Virus record (IMG/VR): IMGVR_UViG_3300036770_007703
Location: 1-64,000 of that record
Length of the DNA: 64,000 nucleotides
From: a virus
Reading direction: 5' to 3' (one strand)
In this document: positions 2,912 to 54,947 of the stretch, one piece after another
How positions within the stretch are numbered: the stretch's first letter is position 1
Layout: every line of letters starts with the position of its first letter
Notes under the pieces: model-generated
Databases searched by the model: none
The model's input: only the letters and a program-made list of their open reading frames with translations
What the model was told of the DNA's origin: nothing
Translations under genes and position numbers: made by a program

Positions 2912-5900
2912 CACAACCGGTATGGGTCACCGATTCCGGCAGCCTTGGCACAGTGCCCGAAGGACGCTTTTATCGTGTGCCTGTGGTGGCCGAAGCCGGA
3001 AGTGCCCGGGTATTTTATCGCGTCATCGCCGGAAATCTACCCGTGGGCATGCAAGTCACGCCCGATGGATTAGTGGAAGGTATACCCAAAAATCTAGTGC
3101 TCATACGCGGAGAGCCCCAGGATCTTGGCACCGACATCACCAGCTCGTTCGTGATACGAGCCTACACTGTACGACTTCTCAACGGAATACAAACAGTAGA
3201 TCGACTCAGTGACCGCACGTTCGAACTCACTGTGACCAGTCAAGCAGTGCCAAATTTCACTACCCCGCCCGGTCTCTTGGGCACTTACTACGACAGTGAT
3301 GCGGTGTCCATACAGTTGGAATTTTCTGACAGCAATCTCGATGAAACCATCACTGTGCGTTATCTGTCAGGATCGTTGCCGCCCGGACTTGCCATCACAC
3401 GCACCGGTCTCATCACCGGAGTGATACTGCCCTATACTGCCACCAGCCAAGGCATCAATCTGCCCGTGGGCACCACACCAGGTTATGATACCACGCCCAA
3501 GGGCGACTATCCCTATGATTTCATCACCAGGGGAGCGAGCCGCAATTATCAATTCGCGGTAGAAGTCAGTGATGGCAAAGATTCCAATGTACGCACTTTT
3601 GAGATCTATGTGTACTCGCGTGATAACATGACCGCTGACACCATAGATTTCACTGCCGACAACACTTTCTTGACCGCAGATCTCGTGCCAAGTCGAGTTC
3701 CGGTGATCATCACACCCGAGGGTGACGTCGGACGGGTTCGCAGCGACAACTATTTTAGCTACCAATTCTTCGCCCAGGACTTTGACGGTGATGACATACA
3801 GTTCGTGGCCACCACTGGTGCTGGTCTGGGCTACGATGAAACCCTGTACGACGAAGAAGGGTTTGGTTTTGACCGAGGCGCTTTGGCTCTGCCACCGGGA
3901 CTGACGTTTGATGTCAACACTGGTTGGCTGTACGGTTACATTCCCGATCTAGGCGCCACCGAGCTCACATATCGATTCGCACTGCGAGTGCGCAAAAAAG
4001 ACAATCTTGCTCTCATCAGCGATTTCTACTATTTCACGCTTACGATCACCGGTGACACTGACACTGACATCAATTGGCTCACCGAATCCAATCTCGGATA
4101 CATCATCAACGGTGCCATTAGCACGCTCAAAGTCGAGGCCGAAAATGTGGGCGGTCGCAGCCTTCTTTATCGTTTTGTTTCGGGATCCAAAAGCCGTTTG
4201 CCACAAGGCCTGAGACTGCTGCCATCAGGAAACATCACCGGGCGTGTGAGTTTCAACACTTTTGCTCTGGACAATGGTACCACCACATTTGATCGCAGCA
4301 CAAGAAAAGTGTACGACTATGACGAGACCACTTTTGATTCGCAGTTCTCGTTCTCTGTGAATGCCTATTCTCCACAGACTGAAAAGCTGGGTTATCAAGT
4401 CGAGCGCATCATAATCACCGACGGCGGATCGGGATACACCGAACAACCGCAGATCATCATATCTCCGCCGCCACTGAGTAGCAGCGCGATCCGTGCCACA
4501 GCCGGATTGGCCACACTGGACAGCAATGGGCGTATCACTTCGATATCAGTGGGTAACCCAGGTCGCGGTTATCTGAGTCCTCCCACCATCACCATCAGCG
4601 GAGGAGGAGGAAGTGGGGCCACCGCCGAGGCCGTGATCTCGATCCTGGACTTGGTCAATGCTGTGAGTTCGGTGCGCAGGTTCACTGTGCGCATCAATCG
4701 CGTTTACAACGAGCCTTATGAAAGCATCTACATCAAGGCCATGCCCACCAACGCAGATCGCAATTTCATCACAGGGCTGTTGTACAATCAAACCTTGCTG
4801 CCGTACGATAGTATCTACCGTGCCGACGATCCCAACTTTGGTATCGCTCAGTCCGTGAAATACATACACGCCTATGGACTCACTGCTGCCACCCTGGACG
4901 ACTATGTGGCAGCCATGCAGATCAATCACTACTGGAAAAACATCACACTGGGTCCCATCCGTACAGCACAGGCACTGGATGTAAACGGCAATCCCGAATA
5001 TGAAGTGATCTACTGTGACGTCATTGACAACTTGGTGAACAATTTCGGAGTCAGCGTGGGCAAATCCGTGCGCTTGCCTTATCAAGTCGAGTTGCCAGAC
5101 AGCAGCTTGGTCAGCACAGTGTATCCCAACAGTCTCATCAACATGCGAGACCAAATCATTGACAACATCGGTCAAGAGCCCACCATACTCCCAAGATGGA
5201 TGACCAGCCGACAGAAAAACGGCGAAGTCTTGGGTTTCCGACCGGTATGGGTCATAGCCTATGTCAAACCCGGCGAAGCTGATCGACTGGCCTATCGCAT
5301 AGATCGCAGCATCGGAGATCAGCTCAACACCATCGATTTCAAGGTAGATCGCTACGAGCTTGACAAGAGCCAGAGCTGGCTGTGGAATCCTGTGCTGAAA
5401 CGCTGGGGCGATGCTCCACCGGCTGCCACCACCTTTGACAGTTATACTCGGTACCTTTACAACATACCCATACTGGACACCAATGGTGTGGTGGCATCTA
5501 CCGAGACTTTCGTGGCCAATGGTACACAAACAGTGTTTGGTTTCGTGCCTCTGGAAAACATCGGCGCCATTATAGTCACCATCAATGGTATCCAACAGCC
5601 CTATCTCAGTCCCACCACCGCTGAGATCGACACCGCATATCGCATAGTTTACACCCGTATTTTGCCGTATTATGCTATCACAGAATGGGACATCACCGAA
5701 TTTTATCAACCCAACACAGTGGTGGTGTATGAAAATCTCTACTACGTGAGCCGTTATGAGGTACCGCCTGGGGTCAATATCACCAGTGAATTCTACTGGC
5801 GCCAGATAGATCCGCCCAATCAAGTGGTGTTCCAGACCGCGCCCTTGAACACTGCGGTGGTGTCGATCTATCAGATCAAAGATCGTTACATACTCAATCC

Positions 5901-8858: not shown

Positions 8859-9230
8859 ATGAGTATCAATCCAACTCGCATCAACAGTCTGCGAGCATTG
8901 CATGATCATGTGCTGGTCGAGGACATGGACTTTGGAGGCCGTCAACTGAGCTCGGGAATCATATTGCCCAGCGACAACGGCAAGAGTTCTGGCATACGTC
9001 CACGTTGGGGTCGTGTGTATGCAGTGGGGCCCGAACACCAGGATGTCACTGTGGGACAATGGATCTGCGTGGCACACGGTCGCTGGACTCGCGGCGTCAC
9101 CATCGAAGACAGCAGCGGGGTGAAAACCATCCGCAGGGTTGATCCCAATGACATCTTGCTGATCAGCGACGATCGGCCCAGCGATGATACCATGAGCGAT
9201 GCAGTGGTGGTGCCCGAACGCAGCCGTTGA
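8859..9230 (+). CDS. groES: Co-chaperonin GroES-like
   Basis: LRALHDHVLV...SSGIILP...GRVYAVGP...V.VGQ. Confidence 0.85.
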   Translation: MSINPTRINSLRALHDHVLVEDMDFGGRQLSSGIILPSDNGKSSGIRPRWGRVYAVGPEHQDVTVGQWICVAHGRWTRGVTIEDSSGVKTIRRVDPNDILLISDDRPSDDTMSDAVVVPERSR

Positions 9231-11251: not shown

Positions 11252-11985
11252 GAGTACATTTCTAGAACTTTTTCGATGATGGGGTGACGTTGCACGTCGT
11301 TGGACCCTAATCGGCAGATACGTAGGCCGTCATACCTTTGCTTTTCCAATCTCGCAGCAAGGTCGATCAAGCCATTGTTGGCAACTGTTCGATCCGTTTG
11401 TTCAACGTCACCCGTGACCACTATCCTCGAACCTTCGCCGATTCGAGTCAGTAACATTTTCATCTGATTGGGCGTGGCATTTTGCATCTCGTCGGCCACG
11501 ATCCAAGCTCGCTTGAAGGTGCGTCCACGCATGAACGCCAGGGGCGAAATCTCGATGATTTCTTCCTCGATGAGGCGCACTACTTCGCGAGGGTGATAGA
11601 ATTCTTTCATGATGTCCAGCAAGGGGCGGGTCCAGGGTTCCATTTTACGCACTAGATCCCCGGGAAGGAAACCGTGTTTTTCATCTTCCACGCCCACGGC
11701 TGGACGTGTGAGTATGATACGGTCCACTGCTCCCATGCGCAAATCTCGCATGGCAGCCATCATGGCTAGATAGCTTTTACCGGTACCAGCTGGTCCTAAC
11801 ACCACTGTGGCCACGGCAGCGGGATCCAAGAGATTCACGATCAGTTGTTCTTGACCGCGTGTCTTGGGCCTTAGCTCGATGTGCCGGGATTTTCTAGCTT
11901 GGTTGAAGTCTATGGTGTTTTCTTGCTGGGGCTCTTGCTGATATTGCTGGCGGCGCTGCGCCTTGGTTCCACGTGCTCTGCTCAA
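11248..11985 (-). CDS. phoH: PhoH-family ATPase
   Basis: GPAGTGKS, LTRPAV, GFLPGD, AFMRGRTF, DEMQN, LTRIG, GDVEQTD. TTG start with AGGAGG RBS. Confidence 0.93.
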   Translation of the reverse strand: MSRARGTKAQRRQQYQQEPQQENTIDFNQARKSRHIELRPKTRGQEQLIVNLLDPAAVATVVLGPAGTGKSYLAMMAAMRDLRMGAVDRIILTRPAVGVEDEKHGFLPGDLVRKMEPWTRPLLDIMKEFYHPREVVRLIEEEIIEISPLAFMRGRTFKRAWIVADEMQNATPNQMKMLLTRIGEGSRIVVTGDVEQTDRTVANNGLIDLAARLEKQRYDGLRICRLGSNDVQRHPIIEKVLEMYS

Positions 11986-45792: not shown

Positions 45793-46520
45793 GAGATTAC
45801 CTATTAGATTTAGTATCACACACCTACGATCTTGGCTGCATAGATCTTGTCAAGATCACTGGCACAGACCAAGAAACCGTGATCGATGGCTTGGCCGAAG
45901 ATCGTTCAGTGGTGCTCAGTGCTCGGTTCTCGGGACCTGTGGCCGACTTCATTGGCACGTTTGGCATGCCAAATCTCGCCAAGCTCAAGATCCTGCTGAA
46001 TCTACAAGAATATCGCGAGGATGCTGACATCACTGTCAAGCGACAGGACCGCAACGGACAAGAAGTTCCTGTGGGACTGCACTTCAAGAACGCAGCCGGT
46101 GATTTCAAGAACGATTATAGATTCATGACTTCGGAGATCGTGGCCGAGAAACTCAAGACCGTGAAGTTTCGCGGTGTGAACTGGAACATCGAGTTCGAGC
46201 CCACAGTGGCAGGCATCCAGCGTCTCAAGATGCAGGCCCAAGCCAACAGCGAAGAGCCCATGTTCCAGGTCAAAGTAGACAACGGAAACTTGTTGTTCCA
46301 GTTCGGTGATCATAGCACACACGCCGGTGAGTTCATCTTCCATGCCGGTATCACTGGAGATCTCAAACGCACCTGGAGCTATCCGGTCAAACAAGTGATC
46401 TCGATCCTGGATCTCGTGGGCGACAAAGTGGTTCGCATCAGCGACGACGGAGCTGCTGAGATCACTGTGGACTCGGGCATGGCCCAGTATCGTTACATCC
46501 TACCAGCTCAAGTCAAGTGA
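45789..46520 (+). CDS. Sliding clamp (gp45/PCNA-like)
   Basis: 243 aa two-domain size, acidic, C-terminal Y.Y.LPA; near the polymerase, with a clamp loader in the window. Confidence 0.65.
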   Translation: MRDYLLDLVSHTYDLGCIDLVKITGTDQETVIDGLAEDRSVVLSARFSGPVADFIGTFGMPNLAKLKILLNLQEYREDADITVKRQDRNGQEVPVGLHFKNAAGDFKNDYRFMTSEIVAEKLKTVKFRGVNWNIEFEPTVAGIQRLKMQAQANSEEPMFQVKVDNGNLLFQFGDHSTHAGEFIFHAGITGDLKRTWSYPVKQVISILDLVGDKVVRISDDGAAEITVDSGMAQYRYILPAQVK

Positions 46521-48043
46521 CCGAACAATACGACCTCACTGGCCGACAACAGGATTATGCTGTGTTTTTGCCGGCCATATCCAGCTTTTATGCCACTTAC
46601 ATAGGCAAGCAACGCTACGACAACAATTTTGTTCCAGCTTCGCGCATGCCCGCTGGCATTCCTGACATGGAACAACTGAACTGGTTGAATGCCCAGAAAT
46701 CGTTGTTTCCCTATCGTTGGAGCCTGTACTCAGCGGGCCATGCCAACTTGGACGTATCAAAGTTGGTGCCCAAAGAAGACATGGTCAGGAACCGTGACCC
46801 CAACACCGTGATGTTGTGCGACTCAGGTGGATTTCAGATCGCCAAAGGTGTGTGGCCAGGACGCTGGGCCGATCCACGAGATCAGGCCGCAGAACGAAAA
46901 CGCAGAGAAGTCCTGGAGTGGCAATGTAGTATCGCCACTTATGGCATGACCATGGACATTCCCACCTGGACCTATCGCAATCCCGAATGGGCTGCGTTGG
47001 CTGGAATTTCCAGCTACGATGATGCTGTCACAGCCACCAAAAACAACAACGACTTCTGGATCGCCAATCGCCACGGTGATACCAAGATACTCAATGTGTT
47101 GCAGGGCGGTAACCATGCCGAAGCCGACCACTGGTACGACATCATGAAAGTGTATTCGGATCCCAAGCACTACCCAGAACGACACTTCAACGGCTGGGGC
47201 ATGGGCGGACAAAACATGTGTGACGTGCATCTCGTTCTCAAACGTCTGGTGCATCTCATACACGATGGCTTGCTGGAAAAAGGTGCCCATGATTGGATGC
47301 ACTTCTTGGGAACATCAAAACTGGAGTGGGCCGTGTTGCTCACTGACATCCAGCGCGCCATTCGCAAGTATCACAACAGCAACTTCACCATCAGTTTCGA
47401 TTGCGCTTCACCGTTCTTGGCCATCGCCAATGGTCAACTCTATCACGAGATCGTTACCGGAAATCGGGAAAAGTGGAGCTATCGCATGGAGCCCACGGCC
47501 GACAACAAAAAGTATGCCACAGACAATCGTCTGTTCCGAGACGCAGTGATACAGGACAGCATACATTCTGTTTTTGAGGACAGTCCGGTGAGCTCGCGTC
47601 TCAAGATTTCCGATGTGTGCGTGTACCGTCCTGGCGACGTCAACAAAGTGGGAAAAGAAGGCAAGACGTCATGGGACAGCTTCAGCTATGCTCTTCTCAT
47701 GGCGCACAATGCCTGGATGCACATTGAAGCGGTACAGCGAGCCAATCGACTCTATGATCAAGGCATCGTACCAGACATGATGGCACACCCCACCGACAAT
47801 GCTTTTGATGCCCGGACCGTGATAGACAAAGTGTTTGCCGCTCGTGATCGCCAAAAGAGCTTGCGCATAATCGATGAACATGCTAAAGTTTGGGAACGGG
47901 TGATTGGTACTCGTGGATTCACCGGAAAACGAGCTGTCAATGCCCATACCATGTTCAACAGTCTTTTTGATGTGACAGAAGAAGTCGAACCCGACAACGA
48001 ATTTGACCAAACCTGTCTTGACCGACTCGAGGAAAGTGTATAA
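46517..48043 (+). CDS. dpdA: DpdA/TGT-family guanine transglycosylase (7-deazaguanine insertion)
   Basis: DSGGFQ, MTMDIP, NVLQG, GWGMGG, HFLG, SFD..S TGT-barrel motifs; clustered with folE, queD and queE. Confidence 0.8.
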   Translation: MTEQYDLTGRQQDYAVFLPAISSFYATYIGKQRYDNNFVPASRMPAGIPDMEQLNWLNAQKSLFPYRWSLYSAGHANLDVSKLVPKEDMVRNRDPNTVMLCDSGGFQIAKGVWPGRWADPRDQAAERKRREVLEWQCSIATYGMTMDIPTWTYRNPEWAALAGISSYDDAVTATKNNNDFWIANRHGDTKILNVLQGGNHAEADHWYDIMKVYSDPKHYPERHFNGWGMGGQNMCDVHLVLKRLVHLIHDGLLEKGAHDWMHFLGTSKLEWAVLLTDIQRAIRKYHNSNFTISFDCASPFLAIANGQLYHEIVTGNREKWSYRMEPTADNKKYATDNRLFRDAVIQDSIHSVFEDSPVSSRLKISDVCVYRPGDVNKVGKEGKTSWDSFSYALLMAHNAWMHIEAVQRANRLYDQGIVPDMMAHPTDNAFDARTVIDKVFAARDRQKSLRIIDEHAKVWERVIGTRGFTGKRAVNAHTMFNSLFDVTEEVEPDNEFDQTCLDRLEESV

Positions 48044-53190: not shown

Positions 53191-53250
53191 CCACGACCTA
53201 AATATCTTGTACAATAACAGCATGGCGATCCACCGCCCTAACTCGGAGAC
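53187..53250 (+). promoter_or_regulatory. Overlapping sigma70-like and late promoters plus 5' leader hairpin of folE
   Basis: TTGACC-N17-TACAAT (53187-53215) with TAAATA at 53199; hairpin GGCG-ATCCAC-CGCC; GGAG RBS. Confidence 0.6.
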
Positions 53251-53254
53251 TGTA

Positions 53255-53953
53255 ATGGAAAATGGGAAATACCTCAGCGATATTATCCGCAAGAACATGC
53301 GGGACAACAACAAACGATTCTGGGCCGGAGACAACATCTCCGACTATGTGCGTGACACAGATGTACCGTTCCTGATAGACGAAGCCACCGAAGCCTTTGA
53401 ACTGGTGTTGGATCGGCTCCTGATCGATAGAGAAACCGATCCCAACTCAAAGGGCACAGCACGCAGATTGGCCAAGATGTACTACAACGAGATCATGGCC
53501 GGTCGCTATGATGCCGCGCCTGATTGCACAGCGTTTCCCAATGATTCAGAGGATAGATATGAAGGAATGTTGGTGGTGCGGAGCGAAATCCGCAGCATGT
53601 GCAGCCATCATCACCAACCTGTTGTGGGTGTGGCTTATATTGGCATATTGGCTGCTCACAAGCTCATCGGGCTTTCCAAATATACCCGGATCGCCCAGTG
53701 GTGCAGCCGGCGTGGCACGCTACAGGAAGAACTCTGCAACGACATCGCCAGAGAGATCATGAAGGTCACTGACAGCCAGGACGTGGGAGTGTATATCCAA
53801 GCCACCCACGGCTGTTGCGAGAATCGTGGCATCATGGCACATTCCAGCCTCACCCAGACCACTGTGCTACATGGCATGTTCAAGACCGATCCTGCCGTGA
53901 AAAAAGAGTTCATCGACAACATCAAACTACAGCAGGACTTTGCACCAAGATGA
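53255..53953 (+). CDS. folE: GTP cyclohydrolase I
   Basis: T..R.AKMY, SMCSHH, GLSK..R, LQE, HGC...RG. Confidence 0.95.
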   Translation: MENGKYLSDIIRKNMRDNNKRFWAGDNISDYVRDTDVPFLIDEATEAFELVLDRLLIDRETDPNSKGTARRLAKMYYNEIMAGRYDAAPDCTAFPNDSEDRYEGMLVVRSEIRSMCSHHHQPVVGVAYIGILAAHKLIGLSKYTRIAQWCSRRGTLQEELCNDIAREIMKVTDSQDVGVYIQATHGCCENRGIMAHSSLTQTTVLHGMFKTDPAVKKEFIDNIKLQQDFAPR

Positions 53954-54345
53954 CAGATCTAGAACAAGCCCAACAACAACGAATAGCACCCTGGGATGAC
54001 GTGGTATGGGAGGACTTCCATGTCACGGTGTTTCGTGATCGGTATCCCGTGACTCCCGGCCATTTGTTGTTTGTGCCCAAATACAACAACAACGGCGTGA
54101 TACGCGAAGCACTGGCCAGTGCCCAGATCGAAGGAGACAACATGGTAGCCCGTGGCGACTGCGACGGCTACAACATCGGTCTCAACCAGGGACGATCGGC
54201 CGGACAAACAGTGATGTACCCTCATGTGCATCTCATTCCGCGACGCACCGGCGACTGCGCCGACCCCACAGGTGGTGTTCGTGGTGTGATACCCACTCAA
54301 CAGAATTACAAAAACACAGACTACAAAGATCCCACAGGTAAGTAA
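53950..54345 (+). CDS. HIT-family nucleotide hydrolase
   Basis: D.YPVTPGH.L.VPK, AGQTV..PHVHLIPR. Confidence 0.9.
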   Translation: MTDLEQAQQQRIAPWDDVVWEDFHVTVFRDRYPVTPGHLLFVPKYNNNGVIREALASAQIEGDNMVARGDCDGYNIGLNQGRSAGQTVMYPHVHLIPRRTGDCADPTGGVRGVIPTQQNYKNTDYKDPTGK

Positions 54346-54351
54346 CTGCTC

Positions 54352-54400
54352 AGCGGTCTCTCAATGACGCTCATCCCGCTCTATAAATTCTGCGTGTCAT
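54352..54400 (+). ncRNA. Candidate preQ1-I-like riboswitch/pseudoknot in the queD leader
   Basis: P1 AGCGG/CCGCT, loop ending CATC, A-rich CTATAAA tail; loop ATGACGC complementary to downstream GCGT(G)TCAT. Confidence 0.5.
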
Positions 54401-54431
54401 CAAACTTGCCCCTTATCACAGGAGACTAGAG

Positions 54432-54947
54432 ATGGCAAAATTCTATTCAACAAAAACCTATGGCAATGATCGCGGACTCAGCTGTTGTTTCCGGCAGTGG
54501 AGATCCACTCACAGTCATTGTTCTACCTTGCATGGATACAGCATAGGTATACGATTGATCTTTGAAAGCGAAACACTAGATGAACGCAACTGGGTCATGG
54601 ACTTCGGTGGACTCAAAGACTTCAAGGCCTGGGCCGACTACATGTTTGATCACACTCTGGTCATTGCCGAGGATGACCCGCATCTAGACTTTTTTAAAAT
54701 GATGGCCCAGCAGGTCACTGCGGGGTCCGAGAATCCCAACAGCTTTGTTCCACACGAGCGAGGAGCATTGTGCGACTTGCGTATAGTGCCAGCTGTGGGC
54801 TGTGAAATGTTTGCCAAACTGGCCTATGACAAAATGGCCGAATTGCTAAAGTCCGGCAAATCTAGGTATGTTATCAACCCAGGAGTTCGTGTAAAATCAG
54901 TTGAAGTATTCGAACACGGCGCCAACTCAGCGATCTACGAGGGCTAA
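54432..54947 (+). CDS. queD: 6-carboxy-tetrahydropterin synthase
   Basis: HCSTLHGY, WVMDFGGLK, FDHT, GCE, V.VFEH..NSA.Y. Confidence 0.9.
   Translation: MAKFYSTKTYGNDRGLSCCFRQWRSTHSHCSTLHGYSIGIRLIFESETLDERNWVMDFGGLKDFKAWADYMFDHTLVIAEDDPHLDFFKMMAQQVTAGSENPNSFVPHERGALCDLRIVPAVGCEMFAKLAYDKMAELLKSGKSRYVINPGVRVKSVEVFEHGANSAIYEG

Follow-up and report, generated by a model that had tools for sequence, protein, structure and literature searches.

A conserved H-type pseudoknot lies directly 5′ of a QueD-like gene, at positions 54352-54400 of a 64-kb window (the whole stretch of DNA analyzed here) from an 85-kb IMG/VR virus record of an uncultured giant phage. We favor, with moderate confidence, the explanation that this queD-like mRNA leader is a cis-acting RNA switch in which a ligand-stabilized knot turns QueD translation on. 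The element looks like a new riboswitch found only in phages, probably one by which translation of an enzyme of DNA-base modification is switched ON. Conservation, base-pair covariation, the exclusive link to queD and the strand shared between two alternative helices are shown by the analysis.

Genomic context of the leader

CheckV estimated the record to be 25% complete, corresponding to a phage genome of roughly 330 kb. BLASTN searches of the locus against deposited phage genomes returned weak coding matches only, indicating that the phage has no cultured relative among them. The element lies in the 86-nt gap (54346-54431) already pointed out in an earlier note on this DNA, which separates a HIT-family gene (stop codon 54343-54345) from the QueD-like gene (ATG at 54432). 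The product of the latter scored 37 bits with the NCBIfam QueD model, which is under the curated cut-off. Besides FolE, the genes upstream of the leader include an NAD-dependent epimerase and a DegT fragment. Downstream, queD is followed by a methyltransferase, a GT2 glycosyltransferase and a xanthine/guanine-PRTase-like protein and, farther away, by a MazG/PRA-PH-like protein, an HhH-GPD protein and a QueE-like radical-SAM enzyme (PHROG 2076, 1e-50), with the gene run closing in a NadE-like amidotransferase and MetK. Because FolE, QueD-like (phrog_2389) and QueE-like (phrog_2076) genes surround the leader, the locus is, as judged by homology, a genuine FolE-QueD-QueE deazapurine locus, in support of the connection to que genes drawn in the earlier note. 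Pfam searches of the 85-kb record identified no true QueC and no TGT/DpdA, QueF was likewise not found, and a 508-aa ORF (46517-48043) had no Pfam or PHROG match at the thresholds used.

The genes between 56417 and 60070 of the window form a cluster encoding xanthine/guanine-PRTase-like, MazG/PRA-PH-like, HhH-GPD glycosylase-like and NadE-like amidotransferase proteins, and no QueC. This gene set points to conversion of a deaza base into a nucleotide, and the NadE-like enzyme may be responsible for amidation of a carboxylate.

Structure and covariation of the pseudoknot

The gap contains, in order, AGCGG (54352-56), TCTCTCAATGACGCTCATC, CCGCT (54376-80), CTATAAATTCTGC and GTGTCAT, and the loop between the two P1 strands is 19 nt long and ends in CAUC (Table 1). 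The 5-bp stem, the CAUC loop end, the A-rich tail and the preceding TAAGTA(A) (54339-45) that had been read from the sequence previously are thus all present. The pairing of loop with tail proposed at the same time is also real, but its register, ATGACGC with GCGT(G)TCAT and one bulge, is not the conserved one, since all 124 distinct leaders have exactly 13 nt between P1 and the variable part of P2. The comparative data instead give P2 as a continuous helix of AUGACGC (54364-70) and GUGUCAU (54394-400) with one G.U pair, continuing towards the junction through a U54371.C54393 mismatch, C54372:G54392 and A54373:U54391. The nested minimum free energy (MFE) of the leader was unremarkable (z = -0.08), as expected because the leader is a pseudoknot.

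Table 1. Positions of the leader elements and associated genes in the window, and of loci in relatives where queD is paired with a UvdE-like gene
Feature	Position	Strand	Remarks
GTP cyclohydrolase I (FolE)	53207-53953		Upstream of leader
TAAGTAA promoter-like motif	54339..54345	+	Overlaps stop codon of upstream HIT gene; putative promoter role
P1 5′ strand, AGCGG	54352..54356	+	Pairs with 54376-54380
L1, UCUCUCA	54357..54363	+	First nt variable, then invariant C and U (C8 and U9 in alignments A1 and A2), then variable pyrimidine-rich stretch
P2 5′ strand	54364..54373	+	Variable AUGACGC (54364-70), mismatch U54371, conserved C54372 and A54373; covaries with 54391-54400
L2 (refined model), U then C	54374..54375	+	C54375 invariant in every real copy
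P1 3′ strand, CCGCU	54376..54380	+	Pairs with 54352-54356
L3, CUAUAAAUUC (10 nt)	54381..54390	+	A at positions 3, 5 and 7 and final UC invariant
P2 3′ strand	54391..54400	+	U54391, G54392, C54393 (mismatch), variable GUGUCAU (54394-400); covariation, four pattern scans
Sequestor helix 5′ strand, UGUCAUC	54395..54401	+	Overlaps P2 3′ strand; paired with 54431-54437 in the MFE structure
Shine-Dalgarno (SD), AGGAG	54420..54424	+	Inside sequestor hairpin
Sequestor helix 3′ strand, GAUGGCA	54431..54437	+	Contains AUG 54432-34
QueD-like/PTPS gene (171 aa), regulated gene	54432..54947	+	Pfam PTPS 1.2e-15; PHROG 2389 (QueD-like) 5.9e-37
QueD-UvdE pairing loci	L010:3577-4614, L016:3664-4698, L067:3601-4707, L007:3698-4852, L164:5-1048		Conserved

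Two alignments were analyzed, A1 with 41 sequences and A2 with 93 sequences covering both subfamilies described below. In P1, 100% of cells in A1 and 97.6% in A2 were paired, four of the five pairs showed compensatory changes, and ten different P1 types occurred among 124 leaders. P2 covaried on A1 and was 83% paired on A2, where the whole model reached 88.8% paired cells and compensatory changes in 12 of 14 pairs. Covariation on A2 was 0.513 compared to 0.153 in shuffles (0/500) and 0.04-0.14 in slid controls, and the anchored P2 length was 3.85 versus 1.54 when the strands were shuffled. Aligning the leaders of related phages, as the earlier note had proposed, hence revealed strong covariation of both helices.

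The pair closest to P1 was tested by four otherwise identical pattern scans of IMG/VR that differed only at L2 position 3 and L3 position 11 of the first-pass layout, corresponding to A54373:U54391 in the window. The A...U scan returned at least 120 stretches, and all 80 loci fetched for examination were real by the covariance model; the G...C scan likewise returned at least 120, of which 76 of the 80 examined were real. The A...C scan gave 28 stretches with one real copy and the G...U scan 18 stretches with none, and the two positions therefore form a Watson-Crick pair. In addition, the first-pass L3 ended in UCYGC, the YG of which pairs with the CR of L2, and one relative carried UCGAC and UCCGC in place of UCAUC and UCUGC. 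By this comparative evidence P2 runs all the way to the junction, through the U.C mismatch, an invariant C:G pair and a covarying R:Y pair beside P1, so that the refined model leaves only two nucleotides in L2 (N and the invariant C) and ten in L3.

The unpaired regions are also constrained. L3 positions 4 and 6 track the middle P1 pair, being Y and A when this is C:G, and A and Y when it is A:U or U:A. This covariation between L3 and P1 persists within platform types and is consistent with L3 lying in the groove of P1. Among 119 leaders of the A:U subfamily, the nucleotide before the invariant C was U in 95, C in 14 and A in 9, while it was mostly A in the G:C subfamily. At the first L1 position, 52 leaders had A, 40 had C and 27 had U. 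The invariance of the single-stranded junction residues resembles that seen in riboswitch pockets. Overall, the element has the generic features of a riboswitch, namely a structured 5′ leader, covariation, invariant junction residues and association with one metabolic gene family.

Relatives have TAAATA, TATAAATA or TAAGTAA 6-13 nt 5′ of P1 or, alternatively, TGTATAAT at a distance of about 7 nt. Consensus scans of the window detected no sigma-70 match in front of the element and no terminator after it.

Distribution of the element

A search of IMG/VR with the QueD protein identified 457 relatives, and 71 of the best 80 loci carry the element directly 5′ of queD. A covariance model built from 41 distinct copies matched these QueD-relative loci at 44-66 bits, with exactly one match per locus, and matched the window once (58.1 bits, E = 1.8e-17), with no further match in it at E ≤ 1. 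In total, about 180 distinct phage leaders share the element (124 of the A:U type and 59 of the G:C type), although the sequence sets stem from related phages and were partly collected by pattern, meaning that these counts are not independent events. Of 77 distinct ORFs downstream of A:U-type copies, 76 encode QueD homologs with 30-83% identity to the QueD of the window, and the ORFs downstream of the real G:C-type copies (76 of the 80 matches listed) likewise encode QueD homologs. Five large relatives (167-335 kb) all encode FolE and a QueE-like protein, and four of them contained a single model match, located only before queD even where queD is 55-60 kb away from folE and queE. Since the flanking genes also vary between loci (HIT/GT2, PRTase/QueE or UvdE-like), the RNA follows queD and not the neighborhood. 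In support of the earlier reading, the leader is a genuine, conserved pseudoknot with a specific tie to queD.

Bacterial and archaeal genomes were scanned as well. A loose pattern returned at least 120 matches, and 79 of 80 fetched loci scored below 20 bits, the sole exception being L164 (54.5 bits), a phage-like contig in a Bacteroidota MAG; a stricter pattern gave three matches, two of them real. The real copies in these scans reside on short phage-like contigs binned into Bacteroidota MAGs, which we do not take as host evidence, and as far as these scans reach, the element appears on phage contigs only.

Among sequencing runs, the locus itself was found only in the probable source sample. 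However, three RNA-library runs, which come from a sediment metatranscriptome study and a study of a whole-organism sample, contain contigs that are 98-100% identical to the window over 89 nt (54351-54439) but have flanks unlike those of the window, so that conservation is far higher in the leader than around it. These contigs differ from the window in the coding sequence after codon 3, and they extend upstream of the promoter-like motif and show neither a transcript start nor expression.

Several variations on the common arrangement were observed. Nine of the 80 QueD relatives lack the RNA, and in six of these (L051-L053, L041, L047 and L017; match at about position 3001) queD is part of a folE-x-queD-queE run. 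For L041 and L051-L053, four of the six, the preceding ORF stops where queD starts, an arrangement suggestive of translational coupling instead of the switch. Many relatives have queD and its leader at a distance from folE and queE, with a UvdE-like gene (UV damage endonuclease family; Table 1) coming next. Some phages carry two copies of the element. L216 has the regular copy before queD and, just upstream of that, a class-I methyltransferase-like gene preceded by a decayed copy (positions 7-53, 29 bits, UUCGC tail); L472 has two full copies 2.2 kb apart (9175-9221 and 11406-11452), one of which is the only real A.C junction variant found. Finally, L049 (2297-2354) and L373 (2150-2204, minus strand) contain a duplicated promoter and 5′ aptamer half, comprising P1, loop and P1′ without L3 or P2 tail, about 640 nt upstream of the full motif. 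This half copy directly precedes an inserted ORF starting with (F)YLYIKQH and containing a NUMOD3 motif, which looks like a homing endonuclease, and the conserved aptamer DNA may have been its insertion target.

Expression platform

The expression platform, which the earlier note had called unclear, was identified as a helix between UGUCAUC (54395-401) and GAUGGCA (54431-37), giving a predicted sequestor hairpin of -10.0 kcal/mol (MFE) in the 3′ part of the leader. The SD is located 20 nt 3′ of P2, in agreement with the previous remark that P2 does not include it. In 115 of the 124 A:U-type leaders and 44 of the 59 G:C-type ones (159 of 183 in total), folding predictions placed the P2 3′ strand in a helix with either the start codon or the SD, and the pairings involved differ by group (GUCAUC/GAUGGC, GCCAUUG/CAAUGGC, CCUAUG/CAUAGG and ACUCC/GGAGU). 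Because of this pairing, the P2 5′ strand is, in the folding model, a mimic of the start or SD region. No sequestor was predicted in about 15 short "CGUU"-type leaders of the G:C subfamily.

As the P2 3′ strand is common to the knot and the sequestor, the two structures exclude each other, a thermodynamic prediction in which the mean duplex energy is -3.6 kcal/mol for P2 alone vs. -8.8 for the sequestor. Blocking the P2 3′ strand had a mean cost of 4.8 kcal/mol and raised the predicted accessibility of the SD from 0.45 to 0.73; for the leader of the window, the predicted unpaired probability rose from 0.25 to 0.71 for the SD and from 0.003 to 0.48 for the AUG. In some type-B leaders, the predicted AUG accessibility drops instead of rising when P2 is blocked. 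Given that knot and sequestor are mutually exclusive, a stabilized knot should free the ribosome site and act as an ON switch, as calculated by nearest-neighbor folding without pseudoknot energetics. This would run counter to the feedback idea of the earlier note if read as OFF logic, as the P2 3′ strand also forms the helix that buries the AUG and the knot should consequently open the start site.

Proposed mechanism and candidate ligands

In the mechanism that we favor, 54352-54400 would form the aptamer-like part, a knot in which L2 ends in the invariant C and L3 runs along P1. A small molecule with a guanine-like face would bind at the P1/P2 junction, pair with the invariant C and stabilize the knot, whereupon the sequestor would be lost, the ribosome-binding site freed and QueD translated. 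As ligand we envisage an intermediate of the FolE-QueD-QueE route, either a 7-deazaguanine or a pterin. We infer that ligand binding, a ligand of this kind and the ON direction are most likely, and a ligand with a guanine-like face is proposed because of the invariant C and the pathway context, which together suggest a deazaguanine or a pterin as candidate. With ON logic, a metabolite from upstream in the pathway (dihydroneopterin triphosphate from FolE, guanine or GTP) would be the more natural activator, whereas activation by a deazaguanine product would amount to positive feedback. Several points speak against this explanation: no known riboswitch model matches the element, a ligand that activates the first committed enzyme would be unusual logic, and all preQ1 classes described so far switch genes OFF (PMC11625349). 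The "CGUU"-type leaders with no predicted sequestor and the type-B leaders in which AUG accessibility drops count against it as well.

A comparable arrangement is known from the add adenine riboswitch of Vibrio vulnificus, a bacterial translational ON switch with a three-way-junction purine aptamer and a known ligand. Both RNAs use the 3′ strand of an aptamer helix a second time, in a sequestor of the SD or AUG, and the folded aptamer frees, or in our case would free, the ribosome site. The phage element differs in being a pseudoknot instead of a three-way junction and in its phage origin.

A more specific form of the ligand-dependent switch can be put forward tentatively, namely that the element constitutes a new phage-exclusive class that is not a preQ1-I variant in ligand terms and in which an early or pathway-specific metabolite activates QueD translation. 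Candidates would be dihydroneopterin triphosphate, CPH4, CDG, ADG or guanine released from host DNA, and QueD would be the committed enzyme of a nucleotide-level route to 7-deazapurine DNA modification.

Alternative explanations and relation to known RNAs

The leader could also be a protein operator, at which QueD itself (autoregulation) or a phage translational regulator stabilizes the knot or the sequestor. The mRNA leader of T4 gene 32 is such an operator, as its pseudoknot nucleates cooperative binding of the gene's own product, which represses translation. Like the element described here, it is a phage-encoded H-type pseudoknot at an mRNA 5′ end, used in T4 for translational control; in contrast, the two share no sequence, and the protein partner is known for T4. 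Conserved single-stranded residues and the alternation between knot and sequestor fit operators as well as they fit riboswitches, and the restriction of the element to phages would also agree with a protein partner. However, there is one site per genome in front of one enzyme gene, even where the QueDs involved are only 30% identical and stand in unrelated neighborhoods, whereas a general regulator would have more targets. Moreover, T-fold enzymes are not known to bind RNA. Altogether, we regard an operator as unlikely.

Slightly less probable again is a ligand-independent leader, in which the knot forms first and the sequestor later (a timer), or which serves mRNA stability, standby binding or a temperature response. 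Transcription of the aptamer about 30 nt ahead of the sequestor 3′ strand, the weakness of P2 alone and promoter-like motifs that put the transcript start just 5′ of P1 are all compatible with a timer. Still, around 12 invariant unpaired or junction nucleotides, a fixed L3 length and the covariation of L3 with P1 exceed what a timer or thermometer needs.

The earlier note had described the leader as preQ1-I-like, and the least probable of the regulatory alternatives, which we consider doubtful, is that it is a divergent true preQ1-I member, with preQ1 or preQ0 as the ligand and end-product repression of queD as the outcome. The preQ1-I riboswitch is an H-type pseudoknot of about 34 nt with a gene-off response, exemplified in types I-III by B. 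subtilis queC, T. tengcongensis, C. antarcticum and E. coli, and all known preQ1 classes are OFF switches (PMC11625349). In preQ1-I, U or UU follows the P1 5′ strand, a specificity C preceded by U (type I) or A (types II/III) precedes the P1 3′ strand, and an A-rich L3 is docked on P1 (PMC11625349). The resemblance is considerable, as the phage element is also a small H-type pseudoknot with a 5-bp P1 and a G-C top pair, has an invariant C immediately 5′ of the P1 3′ strand after U (type I-like), A (type II/III-like) or C, has an A-rich L3 that tracks P1, and precedes a gene of the queuosine/deazaguanine pathway. By analogy with the preQ1-I specificity C, C54375 is a candidate for the ligand-pairing base (PMC11625349). 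In addition, in the short "CGUU" leaders without a sequestor the knot lies 6-9 nt from the SD and could act by occlusion.

On the other hand, the phage element is 47-51 nt long, a variable nucleotide and an invariant CU take the place of U/UU in L1, P2 has 7-10 tiers with a conserved (U.C)-C:G-R:Y junction block instead of 3-4 bp, and the 10-nt L3 ends in an invariant UC instead of A. The SD, which in preQ1-I is in or next to P2 unless a terminator is used, is outside P2, and competition between P2 3′ strand and sequestor in most leaders predicts ON, contrary to the gene-off preQ1-I motifs; the phage element is also confined to phage contigs. As neither QueC nor QueF turned up in the searches of the 85-kb record, the pathway may yield something other than preQ0 or preQ1. 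The Rfam PreQ1 model (RF00522, threshold 39 bits), proposed earlier as a check, gave no match at E ≤ 10 in the window leader (54250-54520) or the 85-kb record, and only noise of 9-15 bits on the five large relatives, including 9.3 bits at the aptamer of one of them (L011). Membership in preQ1-I is therefore not supported by the RF00522 score, the L1 sequence lacking U/UU and the predicted ON direction, and the element is filed as resembling preQ1-I; of the earlier description the resemblance is supported and membership is not.

More generally, no Rfam 15 family matched the whole window at gathering thresholds, or the leader and ten related loci at E ≤ 10. This includes preQ1-II and preQ1-III (RF01054 and RF02680), which are likewise pseudoknotted 7-deazaguanine sensors with translational control but form larger HLout-type pseudoknots in which the SD is buried on ligand binding. 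A literature search found no paper describing a phage queD leader RNA.

Finally, it is highly improbable that the element is a recoding signal that stimulates read-through or frameshifting in the upstream HIT gene, or that it is a chance structure. The stop codon 6 nt before P1 in the window does resemble the spacing of read-through signals, but relatives have other genes upstream, which end at a distance of 50-100 nt and are often separated from the motif by a promoter, and the motif goes with queD and not with the upstream gene. Recoding was rejected on these comparative grounds, and E = 1.8e-17 and the covariation exclude chance.

Implications for giant phages

Virus-confined riboswitch classes are very rare, and phage DNA hypermodification pathways have no known RNA sensor. 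If confirmed, the queD leader would be a compact pseudoknot aptamer of about 50 nt whose logic is opposite to that of every known preQ1 riboswitch, and a natural case of a preQ1-I-like scaffold rewired by a longer P2, a junction block and different L1 and L3 ends; it would potentially serve as a small ON-switch part for synthetic biology. Confirmation would also provide a handle on what uncultured giant phages make from GTP, and if the phage-exclusive class proves true, giant phages would have gained metabolite-gated control over genome hypermodification.
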